From the IMG/VR virus record IMGVR_UViG_3300010367_000012, positions 20,856-84,855 of that record: a stretch of 64,000 nt of DNA. One strand, written 5' to 3'. Below, in pieces: positions 20,703-36,832 of this stretch; the first letter of the stretch is position 1; each line of letters opens with the position of its first letter. Position numbers and translations under genes: made by a program. This DNA comes from a virus. The notes under the pieces are model-generated. The model saw only the letters and a list, made by a program, of their open reading frames with translations. It ran no database searches and was not told the origin of the DNA.

Positions 20703-21112
20703 TAAAACTTACCTCCGTATTTCAGTCTGTCCTCATTGCACCAGGAATGCAGTGCCAGGAGCTTACCCTTGTGGATAATCTTGGATACATACTGGTTCTT
20801 CTTGTGAAATTGAGTAATTTCCGTTGAACAGTAACGGCAGTGATAACCATGAGGTATGACCATCTCCCGCTTAAGCTGTTCTTGCCAGTTCGAAGGGTAG
20901 ACTATGTCTCCCTTCAGGTTGTTGCATTGCTTATGTGTTAACTGAATATTGTCTCGACCATTTCCCCCGCCTGCTGCACGGGGGATAATATGGTCACGAG
21001 ACGCATCGTCAAGTTCTACATACTCTCCACACAAGGCACAGATACCCTTGAAGTCTGCATGTATCCGCGCCAATGGTTTAGAGTAGTAGGAACTTTGATT
21101 CCTACGACTCAT
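20702..21112 (-). CDS. HNH endonuclease
   Basis: CALCG...DHIIPRAAGG.N...NIQLTHKQCNNLKGD. Confidence 0.9.
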   Translation of the reverse strand: MSRRNQSSYYSKPLARIHADFKGICALCGEYVELDDASRDHIIPRAAGGGNGRDNIQLTHKQCNNLKGDIVYPSNWQEQLKREMVIPHGYHCRYCSTEITQFHKKNQYVSKIIHKGKLLALHSWCNEDRLKYGGKF

Positions 21113-26804: not shown

Positions 26805-26956
26805 TGACAGCGATGCGTAGTTGAGAGATACTTCATACAAGGGAAACCGCATGTGAAGGTTCAAATCCTTCCGGCCCGACTCTTCGGGACGTAGCTCAAC
26901 TGGATAGAGCAGTGGTAAATATAAAAGCACTTTCAACGCCCTTTTCTAGCTGTCAA
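26805..26956 (+). ncRNA. Y RNA 1 (YrlA-like, with permuted tRNA module)
   Basis: Terminal stem ttgacagc/gctgtcaa with CGATGCGTAG ... CGCCCTTTTCTAG; internal T arm (gaagg TTCAAAT ccttc), loop-closed acceptor-like stem, then D arm (gctc aactggata gagc). Confidence 0.85.
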
Positions 26957-27405: not shown

Positions 27406-28986
27406 ATGGCTAAGTTCAACAAGACTGTAAAGACTGGTGTTACTTCCCCAGTAAAGTCCGCTAAGACTGCTCTCAATGAGTCTTTCAAGATGGGCTATGA
27501 GCGTGAGAAGAAGAGTGAGCTGTTCCTTCTTGCCGTTTCTAACTTCGTGGGTCAGGACACTTTCTATGAGAGTGCCCAGAAGCGTGATGACCGATTCGCT
27601 AGCCTTGTTCGTGAGGTTGCGGTTCAGGATCAGGCTTGGATCACCGGTTTCGTCAAGTGGCTTCGTAATGATGCCTTCATGCGCTCTGCGTCCATCGTAG
27701 CGGCTGCTGAGGGTGCCAAGGCACTTCTTGACGCAGGAACCATGAACGGCTCTCCTAGGGGCCTTGTAGCGGCTTCTCTAGCCCGTGCTGACGAGCCTGG
27801 TGAGTTCCTGGCGTACTGGACCAACAAGTTTGGCAAGAGTATCCCTGCTTCTGTAAAGAAGGGTGTTGCTGACGGAGCAAAGCGTCTCTACAACGAGTAT
27901 GGTTTGCTTAAGTACGACACCGATTCCAAGGGATTCCGCTTTGCTGACGTCATTCAGTTGACTCACGCTAAGGCTGGAAATGCTACTCAGAACTCTTTGT
28001 TCAAGTATGCTCTTGACCGCCGTTACGGAAATGACGCTGTTCCTGCTGAGTTGAACATGGTGAGCACTCGTGCTAACCTGATGTCTGCTCCTGTAGAGAA
28101 GCGTAAGGCTCTCATTGGTACTGCTGTTGGTCGAGACACGCTCAAGACTGCTGGTATTACCTGGGAAGCTCTTTCCGGATGGCTTCAGGGTCCGATGGAT
28201 AAGCAGGCTTGGGAAGCTGTTATTCCTAACATGGGTTACATGGCATTGCTGCGTAATCTCCGCAACTTCGTAGAGGCTGGTGTATCCAATGAGGTTCTTA
28301 AGGGCGTACTGGCAACACTGTCTGACGCTGGGCAGGTTTCTCGAAGCAAGCAGTTCCCATTCCGATTCCTTGCGGCCTATCAGGCTAACAAGGGAAATCT
28401 GAAGATTGCTGCTGCTCTTGAGGAAGCACTTGAGCACTCCCTTAGCAATGTTCCGTCTCTGACTGGACGTACGCTAATCCTGGTTGACCGCTCAGGTTCT
28501 ATGTTTCAGACTCACCAGAATGACCGTGAGTTGACCATGGCTGATAAGGCTGCTATCTTCGGTTCTGCGCTTGCGCTTCGTGCTGAGGATGCTGACTTGG
28601 TTCAGTTCGGTTCTGCATGGGGTGGACGTAAGCCTTACGAGGCTGTAAACTTCCGTCAGGGAGATTCACTGCTTCCTATGCTTGACAAGTTCCGTGACAT
28701 GGGTGGAACTGACACTCAGGGTGCCGTTCGCGGTAGCTTCAAGGGTCATGACCGCGTTATCATCATCACTGATGAGCAGTACAACGGTTACGGTGGCGAT
28801 CCTCTTTCTGCTGTTCCTGTGAACACTCCGGTGTACACCTGGAACTTGGAAGGGTATCGTGTCGGTCAGAGTCAGTCTGGTTCTAAGAAGCGTCACACCT
28901 TCGGTGGACTTACTGACAAGGGATTCGAGATGATTCCTCTCATCGAGATGGGTCAGTCTCAGAAGTGGCCTTGGGAGAAGAAGTGA
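27406..28986 (+). CDS. rsr: Ro60/Rsr TROVE-domain + vWA ribonucleoprotein
   Basis: ELFLLAVSNF..QDTFYES, LRNDAFMRS, LLKYD, DVIQLTHAK, TWEALSG, MGYMALLRNLRN, SKQFPFRFLAAY, LILVDRSGSM (MIDAS), IIITDEQ, WNLEGY; AAGGAGG SD before ATG 27406. Confidence 0.93.
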   Translation: MAKFNKTVKTGVTSPVKSAKTALNESFKMGYEREKKSELFLLAVSNFVGQDTFYESAQKRDDRFASLVREVAVQDQAWITGFVKWLRNDAFMRSASIVAAAEGAKALLDAGTMNGSPRGLVAASLARADEPGEFLAYWTNKFGKSIPASVKKGVADGAKRLYNEYGLLKYDTDSKGFRFADVIQLTHAKAGNATQNSLFKYALDRRYGNDAVPAELNMVSTRANLMSAPVEKRKALIGTAVGRDTLKTAGITWEALSGWLQGPMDKQAWEAVIPNMGYMALLRNLRNFVEAGVSNEVLKGVLATLSDAGQVSRSKQFPFRFLAAYQANKGNLKIAAALEEALEHSLSNVPSLTGRTLILVDRSGSMFQTHQNDRELTMADKAAIFGSALALRAEDADLVQFGSAWGGRKPYEAVNFRQGDSLLPMLDKFRDMGGTDTQGAVRGSFKGHDRVIIITDEQYNGYGGDPLSAVPVNTPVYTWNLEGYRVGQSQSGSKKRHTFGGLTDKGFEMIPLIEMGQSQKWPWEKK

Positions 28987-29128: not shown

Positions 29129-29199
29129 GGGGCCATCGTTCAATGGTAGGACACCTGTTTTGCAAGCAGGTAATCGGGGTTCGACTCCCCGTGGCTCCA
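29129..29199 (+). tRNA. tRNA-Ala(TGC)
   Basis: cctgt-tt TGC aa-gcagg; G3:U70. Confidence 0.92.
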
Positions 29200-29294
29200 C
29201 ATCGCAAATCCTGAGAGCGGGCTAAACCGGTTACGCCCTTAAGGGATGATTCCAGAGATGGTGACTACACTGGATTAACAAAGTAGTCACACCT

Positions 29295-30503: not shown

Positions 30504-31286
30504 ATGTTTGGTCGTAAGAAGAAGACGAACGATTCGCTTACGGTTCTCAAGAGCATTACTCTTCAGAATCAGGCTAACTTTCAGCAGGTTTCGCTTGATA
30601 AGTCTCACGTTTCTCTTGTGAAGACTCAGGAGGCTGCTAAGGTTTCGCTTACTAAGCGAGGAATGGCAGGAAAGAAGTTTGCAGTCGGCATTATCGTGGA
30701 TAACTCTGGTTCTATGGGTCCGTGGGGATTCAATTTCTACAACAAGGGTTATGTGCAGACGCTGACTGAGTTTGCTCTGGGCTATGCCTTTGAGGTGGAC
30801 ACGGATGGTCTGATCCCGGTTGGTGTCTTTGGAGATGGCTTCCAGTGGGCTTCTGAGGACCTTACACAGGACAACTACAAGGGTTTCGTAGCCTCTCAGG
30901 GCTGGAACGGCAACGGTGGCGGTACGAACACTGGTGGCGCTCTGGAGAAGGTTCAGGAGCTGTTTGACCACTCTGAGGATCTTAACCTCATTATCGTTGT
31001 TACTGACGGTATGCCGAATAGCAAGTCGCACGTTATTCAGCAGCTTGAGCTTATGTCTCGTAAGCCTTATGTTGTCAAGTGGCTTATTGTTGGTGATGAC
31101 GCTGAGGCACTGAAGTTCGGTAAGCACATTGACGATAACCTTGCTGGTCTTGTTGACAATGTTGACACCAAGAACTACACTGGTAAGGACCTTGCAAAGC
31201 TGACTCCTGAGAAGTTTGCTGAGGACATGTCCGACGAGCTTGACACGTATGAGGTTGCAGCAAGGGACAAGGGTATTCTTAAGTAA
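30504..31286 (+). CDS. vWA-domain protein (Ter stress-cluster type)
   Basis: IIVDNSGSM MIDAS, DTDG.IPV..F, GGGTN, IVVTDG; GGAGG SD. Confidence 0.85.
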   Translation: MFGRKKKTNDSLTVLKSITLQNQANFQQVSLDKSHVSLVKTQEAAKVSLTKRGMAGKKFAVGIIVDNSGSMGPWGFNFYNKGYVQTLTEFALGYAFEVDTDGLIPVGVFGDGFQWASEDLTQDNYKGFVASQGWNGNGGGTNTGGALEKVQELFDHSEDLNLIIVVTDGMPNSKSHVIQQLELMSRKPYVVKWLIVGDDAEALKFGKHIDDNLAGLVDNVDTKNYTGKDLAKLTPEKFAEDMSDELDTYEVAARDKGILK

Positions 31287-32353: not shown

Positions 32354-32424
32354 GCCCGATTAGGTTAATGGGAGACCAGTAGTTTTACACACTACATGCG
32401 GGGGTTCGATTCCCTCATCGGGTA
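32354..32424 (+). tRNA. tRNA-Val(TAC)
   Basis: gtagt-tt TAC ac-actac. Confidence 0.88.
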
Positions 32425-32515
32425 CGTGAAACCAAAAACACCAAAGCCCTATCCAGGGCCTAATAATCCGAAACCACCGAGTGGTCCTAGACCACCTTAT
32501 AGAACTTAATACAAT

Positions 32516-32593
32516 GGGGCTGGAAGGTTTCGACGTTGGCGAAAGCCGCACGCGGAGCACCAGCGGACCTGGGTTCGATTCCCAGCAGCTCCA
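32516..32593 (+). ncRNA. mini-tmRNA: tRNA-like domain only, no tag reading frame
   Basis: 5' GGGGCTG-GAAGGTTTCGAC and 3' GGAC-CTGGG-TTCGATT-CCCAG-CAGCTCC-A are tmRNA end signatures; G3:U70; P2 cgttgg/ccagcg closes only about 20 nt. Confidence 0.8.
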
Positions 32594-32595
32594 CT

Positions 32596-32672
32596 GGTGC
32601 CGGACCTAGATCACATGGCGTGGTAGCGCTCTGCAAAAGCGTTGGTTCGGGGTTCGATTCCCCTCGGTACCT
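32596..32672 (+). tRNA. tRNA-Cys(GCA)
   Basis: gcgct-ct GCA aa-agcgt; U73; atypical D arm. Confidence 0.8.
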
Positions 32673-32676
32673 CTTT

Positions 32677-32762
32677 GGAAACTTGGCTGAGATGGCTTAA
32701 GGTGCTCGACTGCTAATCGAGTGAAGGTAACACTTCCACGGGTTCGAATCCCGTAGTTTCCG
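32677..32762 (+). tRNA. tRNA-Ser(GCT)
   Basis: ctcga-ct GCT aa-tcgag; long variable arm; G73. Confidence 0.92.
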
Positions 32763-32767
32763 CGCAT

Positions 32768-32851
32768 GGAAGGGAAGCAAATGGTTAGCGGCTACGCTGG
32801 AAACGTAGTGAGGGTTTACCGCCCGAGCGGGTTCGATTCCCGTCCCTTCCG
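32768..32851 (+). tRNA. tRNA-Ser(GGA)
   Basis: ctacg-ct GGA aa-cgtag; long variable arm. Confidence 0.9.
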
Positions 32852-32949
32852 CAGCACTTGGCAGTGCAACCCTATGTGGTCTGCCTTTTATCGCGGTCTG
32901 GCCTAACGCCAGGGGCTCCGGTACTAAAACAAAATCAGTAGGGCACAAT

Positions 32950-33033
32950 GGAGGAACTAACATCGGTGGCGTGGCACGGTCTTGAAAACCGTACGGTGTA
33001 AAAGCCGTGGGGGTTCGAATCCCTCTTCCTCCG
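32950..33033 (+). tRNA. tRNA-Ser(TGA)
   Basis: acggt-ct TGA aa-accgt; long variable arm. Confidence 0.88.
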
Positions 33034-33037
33034 CTTT

Positions 33038-33112
33038 GCTCCTGTGGCCAAGTTTGGTGAAGGCAGCACTCTTATAAGGTGAAGATCGTCAGTTCAAATC
33101 TGACCAGGAGTA
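33038..33112 (+). tRNA. tRNA-Ile(TAT)
   Basis: gcact-ct TAT aa-ggtga; A73; canonical D and T arms. Confidence 0.82.
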
Positions 33113-33125
33113 CGTTAGGGAGACA

Positions 33126-33434
33126 ATGCGAAACATTACTATGGAGAACTTCAATGAGGTTCTTGAATCTAGCAAGCCTGTTCTTGTTGATTTCTGGGCT
33201 GAATGGTGTGGTCCTTGTAAGATGATGACACCCGTGCTAGAGTCTGTAGACAAGGAGAACGAGTGGCTAGACGTAGTGAAGATCAATGCAGATGAACAAG
33301 CTGATCTGGCTAAGCGTTATGACGTATCCTCTATTCCAACTCTTATGCTTTTCAAGAATGGCAAGATCGTTGAGTATCATGTAGGAGCCTTGCCAAAGTT
33401 CAAGATCCTTGGTATCATTAACGAACACAAGTAA
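33126..33434 (+). CDS. trxA: thioredoxin
   Basis: VLVDFWAEWCGPCK, SIPTL. Confidence 0.95.
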   Translation: MRNITMENFNEVLESSKPVLVDFWAEWCGPCKMMTPVLESVDKENEWLDVVKINADEQADLAKRYDVSSIPTLMLFKNGKIVEYHVGALPKFKILGIINEHK

Positions 33435-33441
33435 GCAACAA

Positions 33442-33513
33442 TCGGGCGTAGTTCAATGGTTAGAACGGCTCTCTGATAAGGAGCAGACGGAGGTTCAATT
33501 CCTCTCGCCCGGA
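33442..33513 (+). tRNA. tRNA-Ile(GAT)
   Basis: gctct-ct GAT aa-ggagc. Confidence 0.9.
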
Positions 33514-33515
33514 CT

Positions 33516-33587
33516 GTGACTGTAGCATAATGGCAATGCGCCACGTTGTGGTCGTGGTTTATGCGGGTTCAATTCCCGTCAGTCACC
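33516..33587 (+). tRNA. tRNA-His(GTG)
   Basis: ccacg-tt GTG gt-cgtgg; C73; the -1 base is T, not G. Confidence 0.88.
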
Positions 33588-33589
33588 CC

Positions 33590-33671
33590 GGATGTGTAAC
33601 CCGTAATTGGTAGCGGTGCGGCCTGTAAAGCCGTTGTTTCGACTCTGGGGGTTCAAGTCCCTCCGCATCCA
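33590..33671 (+). tRNA. tRNA-Tyr(GTA)
   Basis: gcggc-ct GTA aa-gccgt; long variable arm. Confidence 0.9.
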
Positions 33672-33685
33672 CGTAAGACCAAAAG

Positions 33686-33725
33686 AAGCCCCTAGCAGAT
33701 GTAATGTCTCTGCTAGGGGTTTTTC
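33686..33725 (+). terminator. terminator closing the tRNA island
   Basis: cccctagcaga-tgtaatgtc-tctgctagggg followed by ttttt. Confidence 0.8.
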
Positions 33726-33846: not shown

Positions 33847-34983
33847 ATGGCAGAGTCATGGCCAGATGACGGATTGATGGACCTTCAACAGGAGCACCTA
33901 ATCCTAGCTAATCAACTTGCTGATAACACTCTTCAGCTTGAGCAGGGACAGCGAGTAACTGATACTCGTGTATCTCAGGCTCACGGAGATCTAGCTAATG
34001 GACAACGTGCAATTGTTGGTGACATCCACAATGCCGCTCACAATGTAATTAGAGAAGTATCCACAGACACACAGTTCCTGGACACAGGACAGAAGCTGCT
34101 TGAGATGGGCCAGCGTGGCATCGTAGAGGACCTAGGAAGAGGTTTCCTGGGTGTAGAGCGTGGCCAGGCTGCATCCGACCGCAACGTAGACGGGGCCGCA
34201 AGACACCTAGATACTGGTCAGCGCTTTATTGATAACAACCTATATCGTGGATTCCATCAGACTGAGCATGGACAGCGCGAAACCGACAGAAATGTAGATC
34301 ACAATTTCCGTTGGAACGATCTAATTCTTAGAGAGCTTCAGCGTGAAGTTGATCGTGATACTCGTGAGCTAGAGCGCGGACAGCGTTGGAGTGACGAGAA
34401 GAATAGCGATAACTTCTACCGCACAGGACGTGCACTTTCTCACAACGCAGAAGAGAATGCAGAAGCTTTTGGTGACACTAACCAGCACCTAAGCGATGTA
34501 GAGCGTCGTGTAGAAAACCGTATGAGCGACCTAGACCGTAGAGTTGAAGTTGGACAACTGCGTAATCACGATGAGATTCGCTACCAGTCTGAGCTAACTC
34601 GTGAGAAGGCTGTAAAGAATGAGCTAGAGACTCGTCTGTACTTGCGTGACCGTGAGGACAGAACTGAAGATCTAGTACGTACAATGGCTGATCGCAACCT
34701 TGATGAGATGCGTGGATTCGAGCGTCGTTCTCGTGACGATGAGGGACGTACCCGTGACCTTATTCGCCACATTGAGGAAGAGGCTAATGAGCGTGCATTC
34801 CTAAAGGCACAGCTAGCAAACCAGGAACTACGCACAGAGCTAGCAATTGAGCGTGCTCTACGTCGTCGTCACTGGGATAATGAGCCAGTTAGATTTGACC
34901 CAAGAATCAATATCGTAATTGATGATGACGATGACGACAGACATCATCGTCGTGAGCGTCGTGAGTCTTCTCAGACAGTCTAA
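33847..34983 (+). CDS. 18-residue-repeat coiled-coil protein of unknown function
   Basis: G-Q-(R/A) motif at residues 34, 52, 88, 106, 124, 142, 178; charged C-terminus; AGGAG SD. Confidence 0.85.
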   Translation: MAESWPDDGLMDLQQEHLILANQLADNTLQLEQGQRVTDTRVSQAHGDLANGQRAIVGDIHNAAHNVIREVSTDTQFLDTGQKLLEMGQRGIVEDLGRGFLGVERGQAASDRNVDGAARHLDTGQRFIDNNLYRGFHQTEHGQRETDRNVDHNFRWNDLILRELQREVDRDTRELERGQRWSDEKNSDNFYRTGRALSHNAEENAEAFGDTNQHLSDVERRVENRMSDLDRRVEVGQLRNHDEIRYQSELTREKAVKNELETRLYLRDREDRTEDLVRTMADRNLDEMRGFERRSRDDEGRTRDLIRHIEEEANERAFLKAQLANQELRTELAIERALRRRHWDNEPVRFDPRINIVIDDDDDDRHHRRERRESSQTV

Positions 34984-35373: not shown

Positions 35374-35410
35374 CAAACCCCCCCTGTGACTGGGCTTGAC
35401 AGGGGGGTTT
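35374..35410 (+). terminator. terminator hairpin overlapping a TTGACA promoter
   Basis: aaacccccctgt...acaggggggttt; TTGACA(35396)-N18-TAGGCT. Confidence 0.65.
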
Positions 35411-35432
35411 GTCATGTCGTAGGCTGTACCAC

Positions 35433-35798
35433 ATGACAAACTTCACTACGAAAGATTCTGGATACAGAGAACAATATTCTACGGGTATGCAGCGGGATAC
35501 ACAGGATGGGAAAGCACGGTTTGACTTGCTGTTCCCTTTGGATGTACCCTACTCAGACCAGTTCTTCACACGGATTGCTGAATTGATGACCCGTGGTGCT
35601 GAGAAGTACTATGAGCGTAACTGGGAGAAGGCTATAACTAAGGAAGAAATATCGCGCTTTCGTTCATCGGCTGCACGACATTTCTTTCAATGGATGTCTG
35701 GTGATACTGAAGAAGACCATGCTTCCGCTGTGGTATTTAATCTGCTAGCTTATGAGACCACAGTTTACAAGATAAGCCAACAGGAGGAAGAACAATGA
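35433..35798 (+). CDS. dATP/dGTP diphosphohydrolase N-terminal-domain (DUF5664-like) protein
   Basis: TGMQRD..GKARFDLL, GAEKY..RNWEK, S.ARH, EDHASAVVFN; ATG 35433 in leaderless geometry. Confidence 0.8.
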   Translation: MTNFTTKDSGYREQYSTGMQRDTQDGKARFDLLFPLDVPYSDQFFTRIAELMTRGAEKYYERNWEKAITKEEISRFRSSAARHFFQWMSGDTEEDHASAVVFNLLAYETTVYKISQQEEEQ

Positions 35799-36832
35799 AG
35801 CTGTACGATTTGTTCGGTTATCGAGACTATATGCAGATGCTTGACGAAGGGTATGTGCGAGAGAACTTCCACCCTGAGCTTGATCTGCGTATCATCAACT
35901 ACACGGAGAAGGCACAGTACGACAACGAGTGGAACAAGGTAACTGCTAGGTGCCGTGGCCTTATTATCAGTTCTGATGGCACGATCATTGCACGGCCTTT
36001 CGATAAGTTCCTGAACTACGGGCAGAACCAGGCTGACGTACTTCTTATGGATGAGCCTGTAGTAGTAACCGATAAGATGGATGGTTCACTTGGTATCCTG
36101 TGGAGTTACAAGGGTCAGCAGGGTATTGCGACGCGCGGTTCCTTTACGTCGGAGCAGGCTATTCACGCTACTGCGCTCTGGAAGGAGAAGTACAACTTCC
36201 AGGTAGCTCCGATGTGGACTTATATGTTTGAGATCGTCTATCCTCAGAATCGTATTGTGCTCAACTATGGTGACATGGATGAGCTGGTATTGCTCGGTGT
36301 ACGAGACATTGAGGAAGGCGATGTGTTGCTTCCTAACGAGGTTGTAACGTGGCGTGGTCCTAGGACTCAGACCTTCTCCTACGGGACGCTCAGAGAGGCC
36401 CTAGCGGCTCCTCAGCGGCCTAATGCAGAGGGCTTCGTCGTCTACTTCCCGAACCTTGACTACCGAATCAAGGTGAAGCAGGAGGATTACGTAGCGCTAC
36501 ACAAGATCGTTACAGGCTTGACAAAGCGTCGTGTCTGGGAGAACCTTGTTGAAGGTCAGACTCTAGTAGATCTTATAGAGCTTGTTCCTGATGAGTGGCA
36601 CGCGTGGCTGAAGCGGACATACAATGAGCTGATGTTTGAGTTTGCAGGTATCAAGCAGAAGGTGGCCGTTTCCTACCTTGCCGTGGAACAGGATCTCCCT
36701 ATTGGATTTACTCGTAAAGAGTTCGCAGAAAGAGTAAAGGATATGCCTTATCGGAGTATGCTGTTCGGTATCCTGGACGGTAAGGACATCAATCCTGCGG
36801 TCTGGAAGCTGATTAAACCTAGCGCAGAGTAA
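35795..36832 (+). CDS. ATP-dependent RNA ligase (T4 Rnl1-like)
   Basis: Motif I KMDGSLG; CRGLI..ARPFDKFLNY; FEIVYP.NRIV..Y; EGFVV; RIKVK..DY. Confidence 0.92.
   Translation: MKLYDLFGYRDYMQMLDEGYVRENFHPELDLRIINYTEKAQYDNEWNKVTARCRGLIISSDGTIIARPFDKFLNYGQNQADVLLMDEPVVVTDKMDGSLGILWSYKGQQGIATRGSFTSEQAIHATALWKEKYNFQVAPMWTYMFEIVYPQNRIVLNYGDMDELVLLGVRDIEEGDVLLPNEVVTWRGPRTQTFSYGTLREALAAPQRPNAEGFVVYFPNLDYRIKVKQEDYVALHKIVTGLTKRRVWENLVEGQTLVDLIELVPDEWHAWLKRTYNELMFEFAGIKQKVAVSYLAVEQDLPIGFTRKEFAERVKDMPYRSMLFGILDGKDINPAVWKLIKPSAE

Follow-up and report, generated by a model that had tools for sequence, protein, structure and literature searches.

Together with the protein SmpB, the transfer-messenger RNA (tmRNA) constitutes the main system of ribosome rescue and quality control in bacteria, which is also an antibiotic target. 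Then, could a tmRNA occur in nature with its tRNA-like domain (TLD) only? Such a phage RNA has been known since 2009/2014: "Mycobacterium phage DS6A (TLD only)" was listed by Hudson et al. 2014 (PMC4131195), and the tmRNA Website holds it as tmID 11587 / Phage__Mycobacterium.9. A similar RNA was reported to inhibit tmRNA in E. coli, which two later papers word differently (PMC4131195, PMC11915505). According to the account given in PMC3895274, peptidyl transfer to a TLD-only tmRNA takes place in vitro and is kirromycin-sensitive, hence EF-Tu-dependent (Shimizu and Ueda 2006). The 2025 tmRNA database contains 79 phage tmRNA sequences, and just 9 entries among its 97,179 belong to the class "Standard, no CDS" (CDS, coding sequence) (PMC11915505). 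Beyond DS6A and the database papers, no literature on a broad phage family of TLD-only RNAs was found. Here, we describe a 78-base gene of this kind, the mini-tmRNA, located at 32516-32593 on the plus strand of a 64,000-nucleotide (nt) stretch, called the window hereafter, that spans positions 20,856 to 84,855 of the IMG/VR virus record IMGVR_UViG_3300010367_000012, a Streptomyces-type phage. It corresponds to the alanine-accepting tRNA-like head of tmRNA, and is a genuine, well-supported RNA gene of the TLD-only, or "Standard, no CDS", tmRNA subclass. A preliminary description of the DNA had treated the element as unprecedented, which the DS6A record contradicts; what deserves attention is less this single locus than the unrecognized breadth of the family and its near-universal mis-annotation.

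The mini-tmRNA gene and the known tmRNAs

The Rfam tmRNA model RF00023 matches 32516-32596 with 65.5 bits (E 2.7e-23), spanning model positions 1-374 within 81 nt, and the score is 57.0 bits if the mini-tmRNA is searched alone, both above the gathering score of 47 bits with both ends of the model used. In the alignment, model positions 1-29 and about 334-374 are kept, while 12 nt stand for 304 model positions, which is the pattern of end matches around a large internal deletion that the preliminary description had expected. A covariance model built from the family described below, R1, gives the mini-tmRNA 88.2 bits, compared with 27.2 bits for the phage's own tRNA-Ala (29129-29200). Read 5' to 3', the element is GGGGCUG-GAAGGUUUCGAC-GUUGGCG-AAAG-CCG-CACG-CGG-AG-CACCAGC-GGAC-CUGGG-UUCGAUU-CCCAG-CAGCUCC-A, with the following parts.

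32516..32593, plus strand: whole mini-tmRNA gene; mature RNA of 78 nt before CCA addition; RF00023 65.5 bits, R1 88.2 bits
32516..32522, plus strand: 5' strand of the acceptor stem, GGGGCUG; 7/7 pairs with 32586-32592; the G3 of G3:U70 is 32518
32523..32534, plus strand: D-loop analogue GAAGGUUUCGAC without D stem, ending in the conserved GAC; aligns with the tmRNA consensus GGaUUCGAC; GG and UUCGAC are conserved in the family, where UUCGAC was required by the search pattern
32535..32541, plus strand: 5' strand of helix P2a, GUUGGCG; 7/7 helix pairs with compensatory double changes in the family
32542..32545, plus strand: A-rich internal loop AAAG, its first A nearly invariant
32546..32555, plus strand: capping hairpin CCG-CACG-CGG, closing P2 where the mRNA-like domain and pseudoknots would be; compensatory changes at 3/3 pairs
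32556..32564, plus strand: AG, closing the internal loop on its 3' side, followed by CACCAGC, the 3' strand of P2a
32565..32568, plus strand: conserved GGAC linker, which fits the tmRNA consensus cGGAC; in the family set, the search pattern required it
32569..32585, plus strand: T arm CUGGG-UUCGAUU-CCCAG, whose outer two pairs covary freely
32586..32593, plus strand: 3' strand of the acceptor stem, CAGCUCC, and discriminator A73; U70 is 32590 and A73 is 32593

The layout proposed in the preliminary description, i.e., an alanine acceptor with G3:U70, no D stem, GAC and GGAC, and a T arm, can be read directly, and its assignment to the two ends of a tmRNA without the tag domain agrees with the Rfam match, the covariation and the independent assemblies presented below. 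There is no anticodon arm; the GAC and GGAC linkers flank P2a, and the T arm is canonical. P2 was said to close after only about 20 nt. The short closure stands, while the interior needs correction, being structured into P2a, the AAAG/AG internal loop and the 3-bp hairpin CCG-CACG-CGG. Here, P2a has 5 bp and then 1 bp on the two sides of a single C x A mismatch, compared with 7 bp in most relatives. CCA is not encoded, the bases after A73 being CUG (ACUG). Note that only the acceptor and the T arm are recovered by the single-sequence minimum free energy fold, which has a slight advantage over the folds of shuffled sequences (z -1.92); it is uninformative on the interior, and the evidence for the fold is comparative.

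The stop codons TAA, TAG and TGA are absent from all frames of the 78 nt with or without CCA added, no space is left for pseudoknots, and a tag frame with resume codon and in-frame stop is absent, since 304 model positions are replaced by 12 nt. The lack of pseudoknots, resume codon and stop had been noted beforehand as well. The mini-tmRNA is thus not a functional trans-translation template, and not a canonical tagging tmRNA, because it has no mRNA-like domain with a stop-ended tag. A hidden tag reading frame was also considered and rejected: in addition to the lack of stops in this RNA, frames running from GCN to a stop occur in 19/81 family members, compared with 21.7 +/- 3.8 in shuffles. 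Elsewhere in the 112,476-bp phage record, which CheckV rates as complete, no full-length tmRNA was found. An identity as canonical tRNA-Ala, i.e., an RF00005 cloverleaf with D stem and anticodon arm, was rejected too, for the tmRNA match is retained in the Rfam clan competition at the locus, and ARAGORN, another check suggested beforehand, made no call there while calling 30 tRNAs elsewhere in the window.

Compared with bacterial tmRNA (SsrA, RF00023), the acceptor, G3:U70, A73, the D analogue GGxUUCGAC, the GGAC linker and the T arm align, whereas the resume codon, the tag reading frame with its stop and the pseudoknots PK1-PK4 are lacking (304/374 positions). The closest described element is that of DS6A, which we confirmed at JN698994 28478-28560 (L132:579-661) with 43.2 bits for RF00023 and 65.1 bits for R1. 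It is likewise phage-borne, about 80 nt long, without tag frame and unannotated in GenBank, and shares the G3:U70 acceptor, the D analogue, the T arm and a short capped P2, with the interior ACGAAAACCGCACGCGGUAC. However, its linker is GCAC instead of GGAC, its T stem is GCGAG/CUCGC, its score is below the Rfam gathering score, and its gene, an isolated one, precedes a DNA polymerase III gene in a mycobacteriophage of 60 kb, while the present one lies in the tRNA island of a 112-kb phage. The CDS-less organellar tmRNAs, i.e., mitochondrial ones and two plastid genes of about 65 bp in Mallomonadaceae, are also natural, have no tag frame and co-occur with SmpB (PMC11915505); compared by their description only, they differ in being products of reductive evolution, the mitochondrial ones being permuted. 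Engineered TLD constructs (Gutmann 2003; Bessho 2007; Shimizu and Ueda 2006) have a similarly short helix or loop closure and, in the accounts found in PMC3895274, PMC4131195 and PMC11090510, bind SmpB and accept peptidyl transfer in vitro. They are artificial, whereas natural members have in addition an A-rich internal loop, which is conserved, and a capping hairpin, which covaries.

Could the short form be an artifact of assembly? Logan contigs from soil and rhizosphere metagenomes of three independent studies all contain the same short form with no inserted sequence, which rules out a mis-assembly or deletion and answers a doubt raised in advance. A 1,303-nt contig of run X3 covers 32484-33700 with 23 differences, none of them in the RNA, and the sole difference in a contig of run X4 over 32516-32873 is C32558U, by which the P2a pair G26-C43 becomes G.U. 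In the isolated Streptomyces phages GiJojo and LuckySocke, the element is 97.5% identical, while the surrounding 2.5 kb aligns only piecewise at about 87%. The two differences in the 78 nt form a compensatory pair at 4:69, with G4-C69 replaced by U4-A69. In pSt2308, BRock and Alone3, the element occurs at the same place, after tRNA-Val(UAC), and none of these five records annotates it as RNA. In GiJojo, gp44 (L001:1504-1746), a "hypothetical protein", is drawn over the gene, as is another one (L010:1389-1529) in Jojan60; the annotated ATG of gp44 lies 2 nt before the G1 of the RNA, and the CDS start is probably wrong.

Distribution and conservation of the family

To collect the family, a pattern built on the conserved core (TTCGAC, 20-50 nt, GGACNNGGGTTCRANTCCCNNC) was searched, with at least 119 loci in IMG/VR. 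Among the matches listed, 114/119 are closed by a perfect 7-bp acceptor stem that starts with GGG and has U at position 70, and the 114 minis listed comprise 82 distinct sequences, 80 of which are 73-81 nt long. The other two (L044:11908-12002 and L056:11235-11329) are 95 nt long with a longer GC-rich P2 extension and 57-59 bits for R1, which suggests that the interior can lengthen with the TLD frame fixed. In the genomes of 185,579 species, the same pattern yields 120 loci, only 4-5 of which are minis; the others are ordinary tmRNA 3' ends, where TTCGAC occurs by chance ahead of the conserved UAAGCAUGUAG segment. Normal tmRNAs of 357-397 nt occur in 110 of the 121 actinomycete genomes sampled (a tally that includes G008, G033, G037 and G044, flagged as unpublished, from which no sequence was used), and one genome, G058, has an additional 81-nt mini. 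The mini of G058 (L292:8028-8108; G058:C13:64027-64107) encodes CCA. The large subunit of a phage terminase (phrog_38, 1e-65) is encoded two open reading frames (ORFs) upstream of it; an unannotated ORF of 588 amino acids (aa) precedes the mini, and a 1,855-aa protein with PHROG matches only follows. This mini probably belongs to a prophage, or to a phage contig included in the assembly.

Homologues in other phages had been suggested as a check, and among isolates the mini is found in the Streptomyces phages GiJojo, LuckySocke, BRock, pSt2308 and Alone3, as well as in Stenotrophomonas phage Jojan60, Pontimonas phage phiPsal1 and mycobacteriophage DS6A. Where other isolated phages gave weak BLAST matches, these were no minis but tmRNAs, either full-length or permuted, ordinary tRNAs, or fragments resembling attP. 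The mini-tmRNA family is phage-specific in distribution. ARAGORN misses 79/80 family loci, and no tRNA is nearby at 63/80. No protein neighbour is conserved across the family, the largest cluster comprising 11/81 loci; the recurrent neighbours, such as capsid, prohead protease, portal and helicase/primase genes, belong to particular lineages and reflect lineage synteny. Since 63/80 loci lack a tRNA and no neighbour recurs at more than 11/81, the RNA is an autonomous module rather than part of a fixed operon.

In some of these lineages the gene lies between those for prohead protease and capsid (phiPsal1) or beside primase (Jojan60). Several lineages carry it on the same strand, either next to primase/helicase genes or with the prohead protease gene on one side and the major capsid gene on the other, as would be expected of a tRNA-like "punctuation", i.e., a substrate by which RNase P and RNase Z cut polycistronic transcripts, the RNA itself having no role. 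Any tRNA-like fold would serve that purpose, and the conservation of the D analogue, the GAC and GGAC linkers, G3.U70, A73, and the interior loop and hairpin would be left unexplained; we regard this possibility as very improbable.

The common build of the family comprises the acceptor, G-A-W-GGUUUCGAC, a 7-bp P2a, an AAAR/AR internal loop, a tetraloop hairpin of 3-4 bp, GGAC, the T arm and A73. R1 was built from 88 sequences, and the statistics refer to an alignment of 87 distinct sequences that was fitted to this model and, being collected by motif, has TTCGAC, GGAC, GGGTTCRANTCCC and C66 as imposed columns. On this basis, standard pairs fill 94.8% of the paired cells, compared with 67.0% in shuffles and 41-53% in slid controls. 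The covariation score is 0.664, compared with 0.138 for shuffles (0/500 reach the observed value) and at most 0.09 for slid controls, and double, two-sided changes occur at 18/22 pairs. In the interior, the first A of the internal loop (A27) is found in 79/81 sequences with a letter there (6/87 are gapped), A28 is present in 69/87, and the capping-hairpin pair C31:G40 is kept in 80/87. The acceptor pairs 4-6 vary freely, with five pair types each, while G1-C72, G2-C71, G3.U70 and A73, none of them imposed by the pattern, are invariant in 87/87. The fold, including the determinants of charging, is under purifying selection.

A G.U wobble in the acceptor stem together with A73 is the identity set by which alanyl-tRNA synthetase (AlaRS) recognizes its substrates. 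Since G3.U70 and A73 are invariant inside a helix that otherwise covaries freely, we read the pattern as selection for aminoacylation, which argues against a mere protein sponge. In the latter case, the RNA would sequester host SmpB off the ribosome, and aminoacylation and ribosome entry would be irrelevant. The phage encodes no SmpB of its own, as such a sponge would have it; on the other hand, SmpB binds the elbow and the P2a side instead of the acceptor end (Gutmann 2003 and Bessho 2007, cited in PMC11090510 and PMC4131195). A sponge would not fix a G.U wobble, and the AlaRS identity set is constant in 87/87 while the adjacent acceptor pairs covary. A pure sponge is therefore unlikely in our view.

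The family also differs from the tmRNAs of the hosts. At position 8, the sampled actinobacterial tmRNAs have A (31/31), whereas the mini of the window and 54/80 minis have G; the former have A-Y-C before GGUUUCGAC, and the minis with G at position 8 have G-A-W. The acceptor and T stems and the interior differ as well, the conserved interior having no counterpart in the cellular sequences examined. Over 48 positions of the TLD halves, the best cellular identity is 43, compared with 45-46 for the best viral mini outside the own clade, which is a modest signal. A recent capture or cut-down copy of host ssrA is consequently not supported by position 8, the stems and the interior. More generally, the element might be a non-functional remnant, be it an ssrA copy of phage or host in decay, a fragment of the attP type or a deletion made in assembly. 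Beside integrases, 3' fragments of ssrA are indeed found in phage genomes; for example, the matches in Shandong1 and Milly adjoin Y-integrases and do not score as tmRNA. Here, however, both ends are present with 7/7 pairing, no integrase is adjacent, the neighbours being tRNA genes, thioredoxin and RNA ligase, and the distinction from an ssrA attP fragment drawn at the outset is borne out. With the strong covariation, the near-identity in relatives despite diverged flanks, the short form assembled in three studies and a TLD unlike the sampled actinobacterial tmRNAs (position 8), a remnant is extremely unlikely.

Genomic setting and other phage tmRNAs

As stated in the preliminary description, the gene lies among tRNAs, within an island of about 32 tRNA genes at 22.1-33.7 kb. 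The nearest tRNA gene upstream is as follows.

32354..32425, plus strand: tRNA-Val(UAC), called by ARAGORN; same order in GiJojo, LuckySocke, pSt2308, BRock and Alone3

The 30 ARAGORN tRNAs, an Rfam-only tRNA at 32768-32851 and a tRNA-Cys(GCA)-like element at 32596-32671 together cover all 20 amino acids. The latter element, on the plus strand directly after the mini-tmRNA, is a 76-nt tRNA-like sequence. Its acceptor (GGUGCCG/CGGUACC) has 7 bp, its T arm is good and its CUGCAAA loop would hold the Cys anticodon GCA, while the D region is aberrant; ARAGORN misses it, and Rfam gives 16.7 bits as tRNA and 22 bits as mascRNA-like. Its homologues follow the mini in GiJojo, LuckySocke and BRock, one of which is annotated as tRNA-Cys. 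The Rfam-only tRNA (plus strand, 37.8 bits) has class-II length, and its position matches that of tRNA-Ser(GGA) in GiJojo and LuckySocke.

A TACAAT hexamer ahead of the gene had been taken for a promoter element. It ends at 32515 and adjoins G1, so that a start 6-8 nt downstream would fall within the acceptor stem. LuckySocke lacks the hexamer, GiJojo has it in altered form, and matches resembling promoters are not more frequent in the region than in shuffles (5, compared with 3.0 +/- 1.9). The promoter was rejected, and it would be simpler to suppose that the gene is transcribed along with the tRNAs and then processed by RNase P.

None of the 30 called tRNA genes encodes CCA, and SmpB, peptidyl-tRNA hydrolase (Pth), an RF-1/ArfB domain and a CCA-adding enzyme were all looked for in the phage and not found. 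Because these factors and an encoded CCA are absent, maturation and function of the mini-tmRNA must rely on the host.

The neighbourhood is an RNA repair and quality-control setting. Next to the island, an Rnl1-type RNA ligase (PF09511) is encoded at 35795-36832 and a protein with a dATP/dGTP diphosphohydrolase N-domain at 35409-35798; a vWA-TerF-like protein (30504-31286) and thioredoxin (33126-33434) are also among the flanking genes. A 378-aa ORF at 33847-34983, at the position of GiJojo gp52, which is annotated as "RNA ligase", has no Pfam match. A Ro60/TROVE domain (PF05731, 57.7 bits) occurs at about 28198-28392 within a 536-aa ORF, and upstream of it, at 26821-26939, there is a weak match (26.6 bits, below gathering) to the Y RNA-like YrlA. 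Of the Ro60/Y-RNA module that a separate earlier note had placed in the island, the Ro60/TROVE protein is thus present, and the Y RNA is seen only as this match.

In such a setting, the mini-tmRNA might serve as a decoy or shield against defences that sense or cut tmRNA-like or tRNA-like RNAs, such as nucleases or the SmpB-like sensor domains of CoCoNuT. The tRNA genes, the Rnl1-type ligase and the Ro60/TROVE gene with its Y-RNA-like element would suit this idea, and CoCoNuT defence proteins carry SmpB-like OB folds that are predicted to bind tmRNA (PMC11090510). On the family scale, the RNA is not tied to repair islands, since 63/80 loci have no tRNA nearby and no protein neighbour is common; there is no known defence system that targets the TLD, and the fixed AlaRS identity elements would be left unexplained. 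We consider a decoy quite improbable.

Phages also encode full-length or permuted tmRNAs, for example those of mycobacteriophages of the Wildcat/Bxz1 type and of GMA2, PaMx31 and S-SSM7. Like the mini-tmRNA, they are phage-encoded and often near tRNA genes; unlike it, they keep the mRNA-like domain, and annotated tags occur, e.g., in EniyanLRS. In Gordonia phage GMA2 (L136, KR063281 59991-60820, reverse), an unannotated full-length tmRNA of 412 nt occupies 21-432 with 94.6 bits. After it come a YrlA-like match at 457-566 (43 bits, below gathering), a tRNA-Trp and a Pistol ribozyme match at 742-798 (56.8 bits, threshold 34.5). Pseudomonas phage PaMx31 (L135) and Synechococcus cyanophage S-SSM7 (L139) have unannotated permuted two-piece tmRNA genes with 109-118 bits, over which, in S-SSM7, hypothetical CDSs are drawn.

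Possible action during infection and its meaning

How could such an RNA act? For the steps beyond identity, fold, selection and distribution, we infer from what is established about tmRNA and from how similar molecules are reported to behave. The mini-tmRNA would be transcribed together with the tRNA island and mature like a tRNA, with RNase P cutting at the 5' end, trimming at the 3' end and a host enzyme adding CCA. Host AlaRS would then charge it with alanine by means of G3:U70 and A73, and host SmpB would bind at the elbow of D analogue and T loop. EF-Tu would bring the charged RNA to ribosomes stalled at mRNA 3' ends, where it would compete with host tmRNA. The nascent chain would be accepted on the alanine of the mini with no template to follow, and rescue would be uncoupled from ssrA tagging and proteolysis, the stalled complexes being left blocked or else cleared by routes that do not depend on the tag. 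For the phage, this may result in less tagging by tmRNA-SmpB in infection. Taken as a whole, this chain, in which an alanyl-charged, SmpB-bound mini competes with host tmRNA and diverts rescue from ssrA tagging, seems to us moderately probable. The roles proposed in the preliminary description, i.e., an SmpB sponge or trans-translation inhibitor, or a tag-less rescue RNA that adds alanine, match the view of the DS6A precedent expressed in the literature (PMC4131195, PMC11915505).

Transcripts of the mini-tmRNA are hinted at by contigs from RNA-seq libraries of two other studies, which are compatible with transcription and do not prove it: those of root runs X24-X26 cover 79-81 nt with 0 differences and that of soil run X29 has 2 differences, and their flanks match GiJojo/LuckySocke-like relatives instead of this window.

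Several points weigh against the competition with host tmRNA outlined above. In one soil metatranscriptome, no contig over the mini-tmRNA was found, and the contigs from RNA libraries reach beyond the mature RNA, which DNA carry-over or precursors could explain. The motif-collected family set is biased toward canonical TLDs. Some phages need tmRNA. In addition, an engineered analogue did not have to be chargeable in order to inhibit (PMC4131195), so that inhibition as such can do without charging.

The mini-tmRNA may alternatively be not an inhibitor but a distinct, phage-run rescue RNA, which, when charged and bound to host SmpB, would add alanine template-free in stalled ribosomes; this is a possibility to which we give a low probability. 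In a single-round form, one alanine could be added, followed by tag-free release via drop-off and Pth or ArfB-type factors. In a repeat form, the empty A site could permit repeated addition, producing short C-terminal alanine tails. If this is true, ribosomes would keep cycling while host or phage nucleases shred mRNA, the phage would control the degradation of nascent proteins, and the A-rich loop and the hairpin, both conserved, would make specific contact with the ribosome or with a factor.

A simple pattern finds more than 100 minis in IMG/VR, compared with the 9 "Standard, no CDS" entries of the published tmRNA database. In GenBank phage records, these genes are unannotated or overlaid by bogus CDSs, and ARAGORN overlooks nearly all of them. 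The strict conservation of the alanine identity leads to a directly testable prediction, namely that charging matters, and cultured pairs of host and phage exist for this purpose: GiJojo, LuckySocke, Alone3 and BRock on Streptomyces, and Jojan60 on Stenotrophomonas. A natural, widespread phage RNA that keeps only the head recognized by SmpB and AlaRS would be a ready-made tool for separating rescue from proteolytic tagging, and the mini-tmRNAs could show how phages manipulate the quality control of translation.

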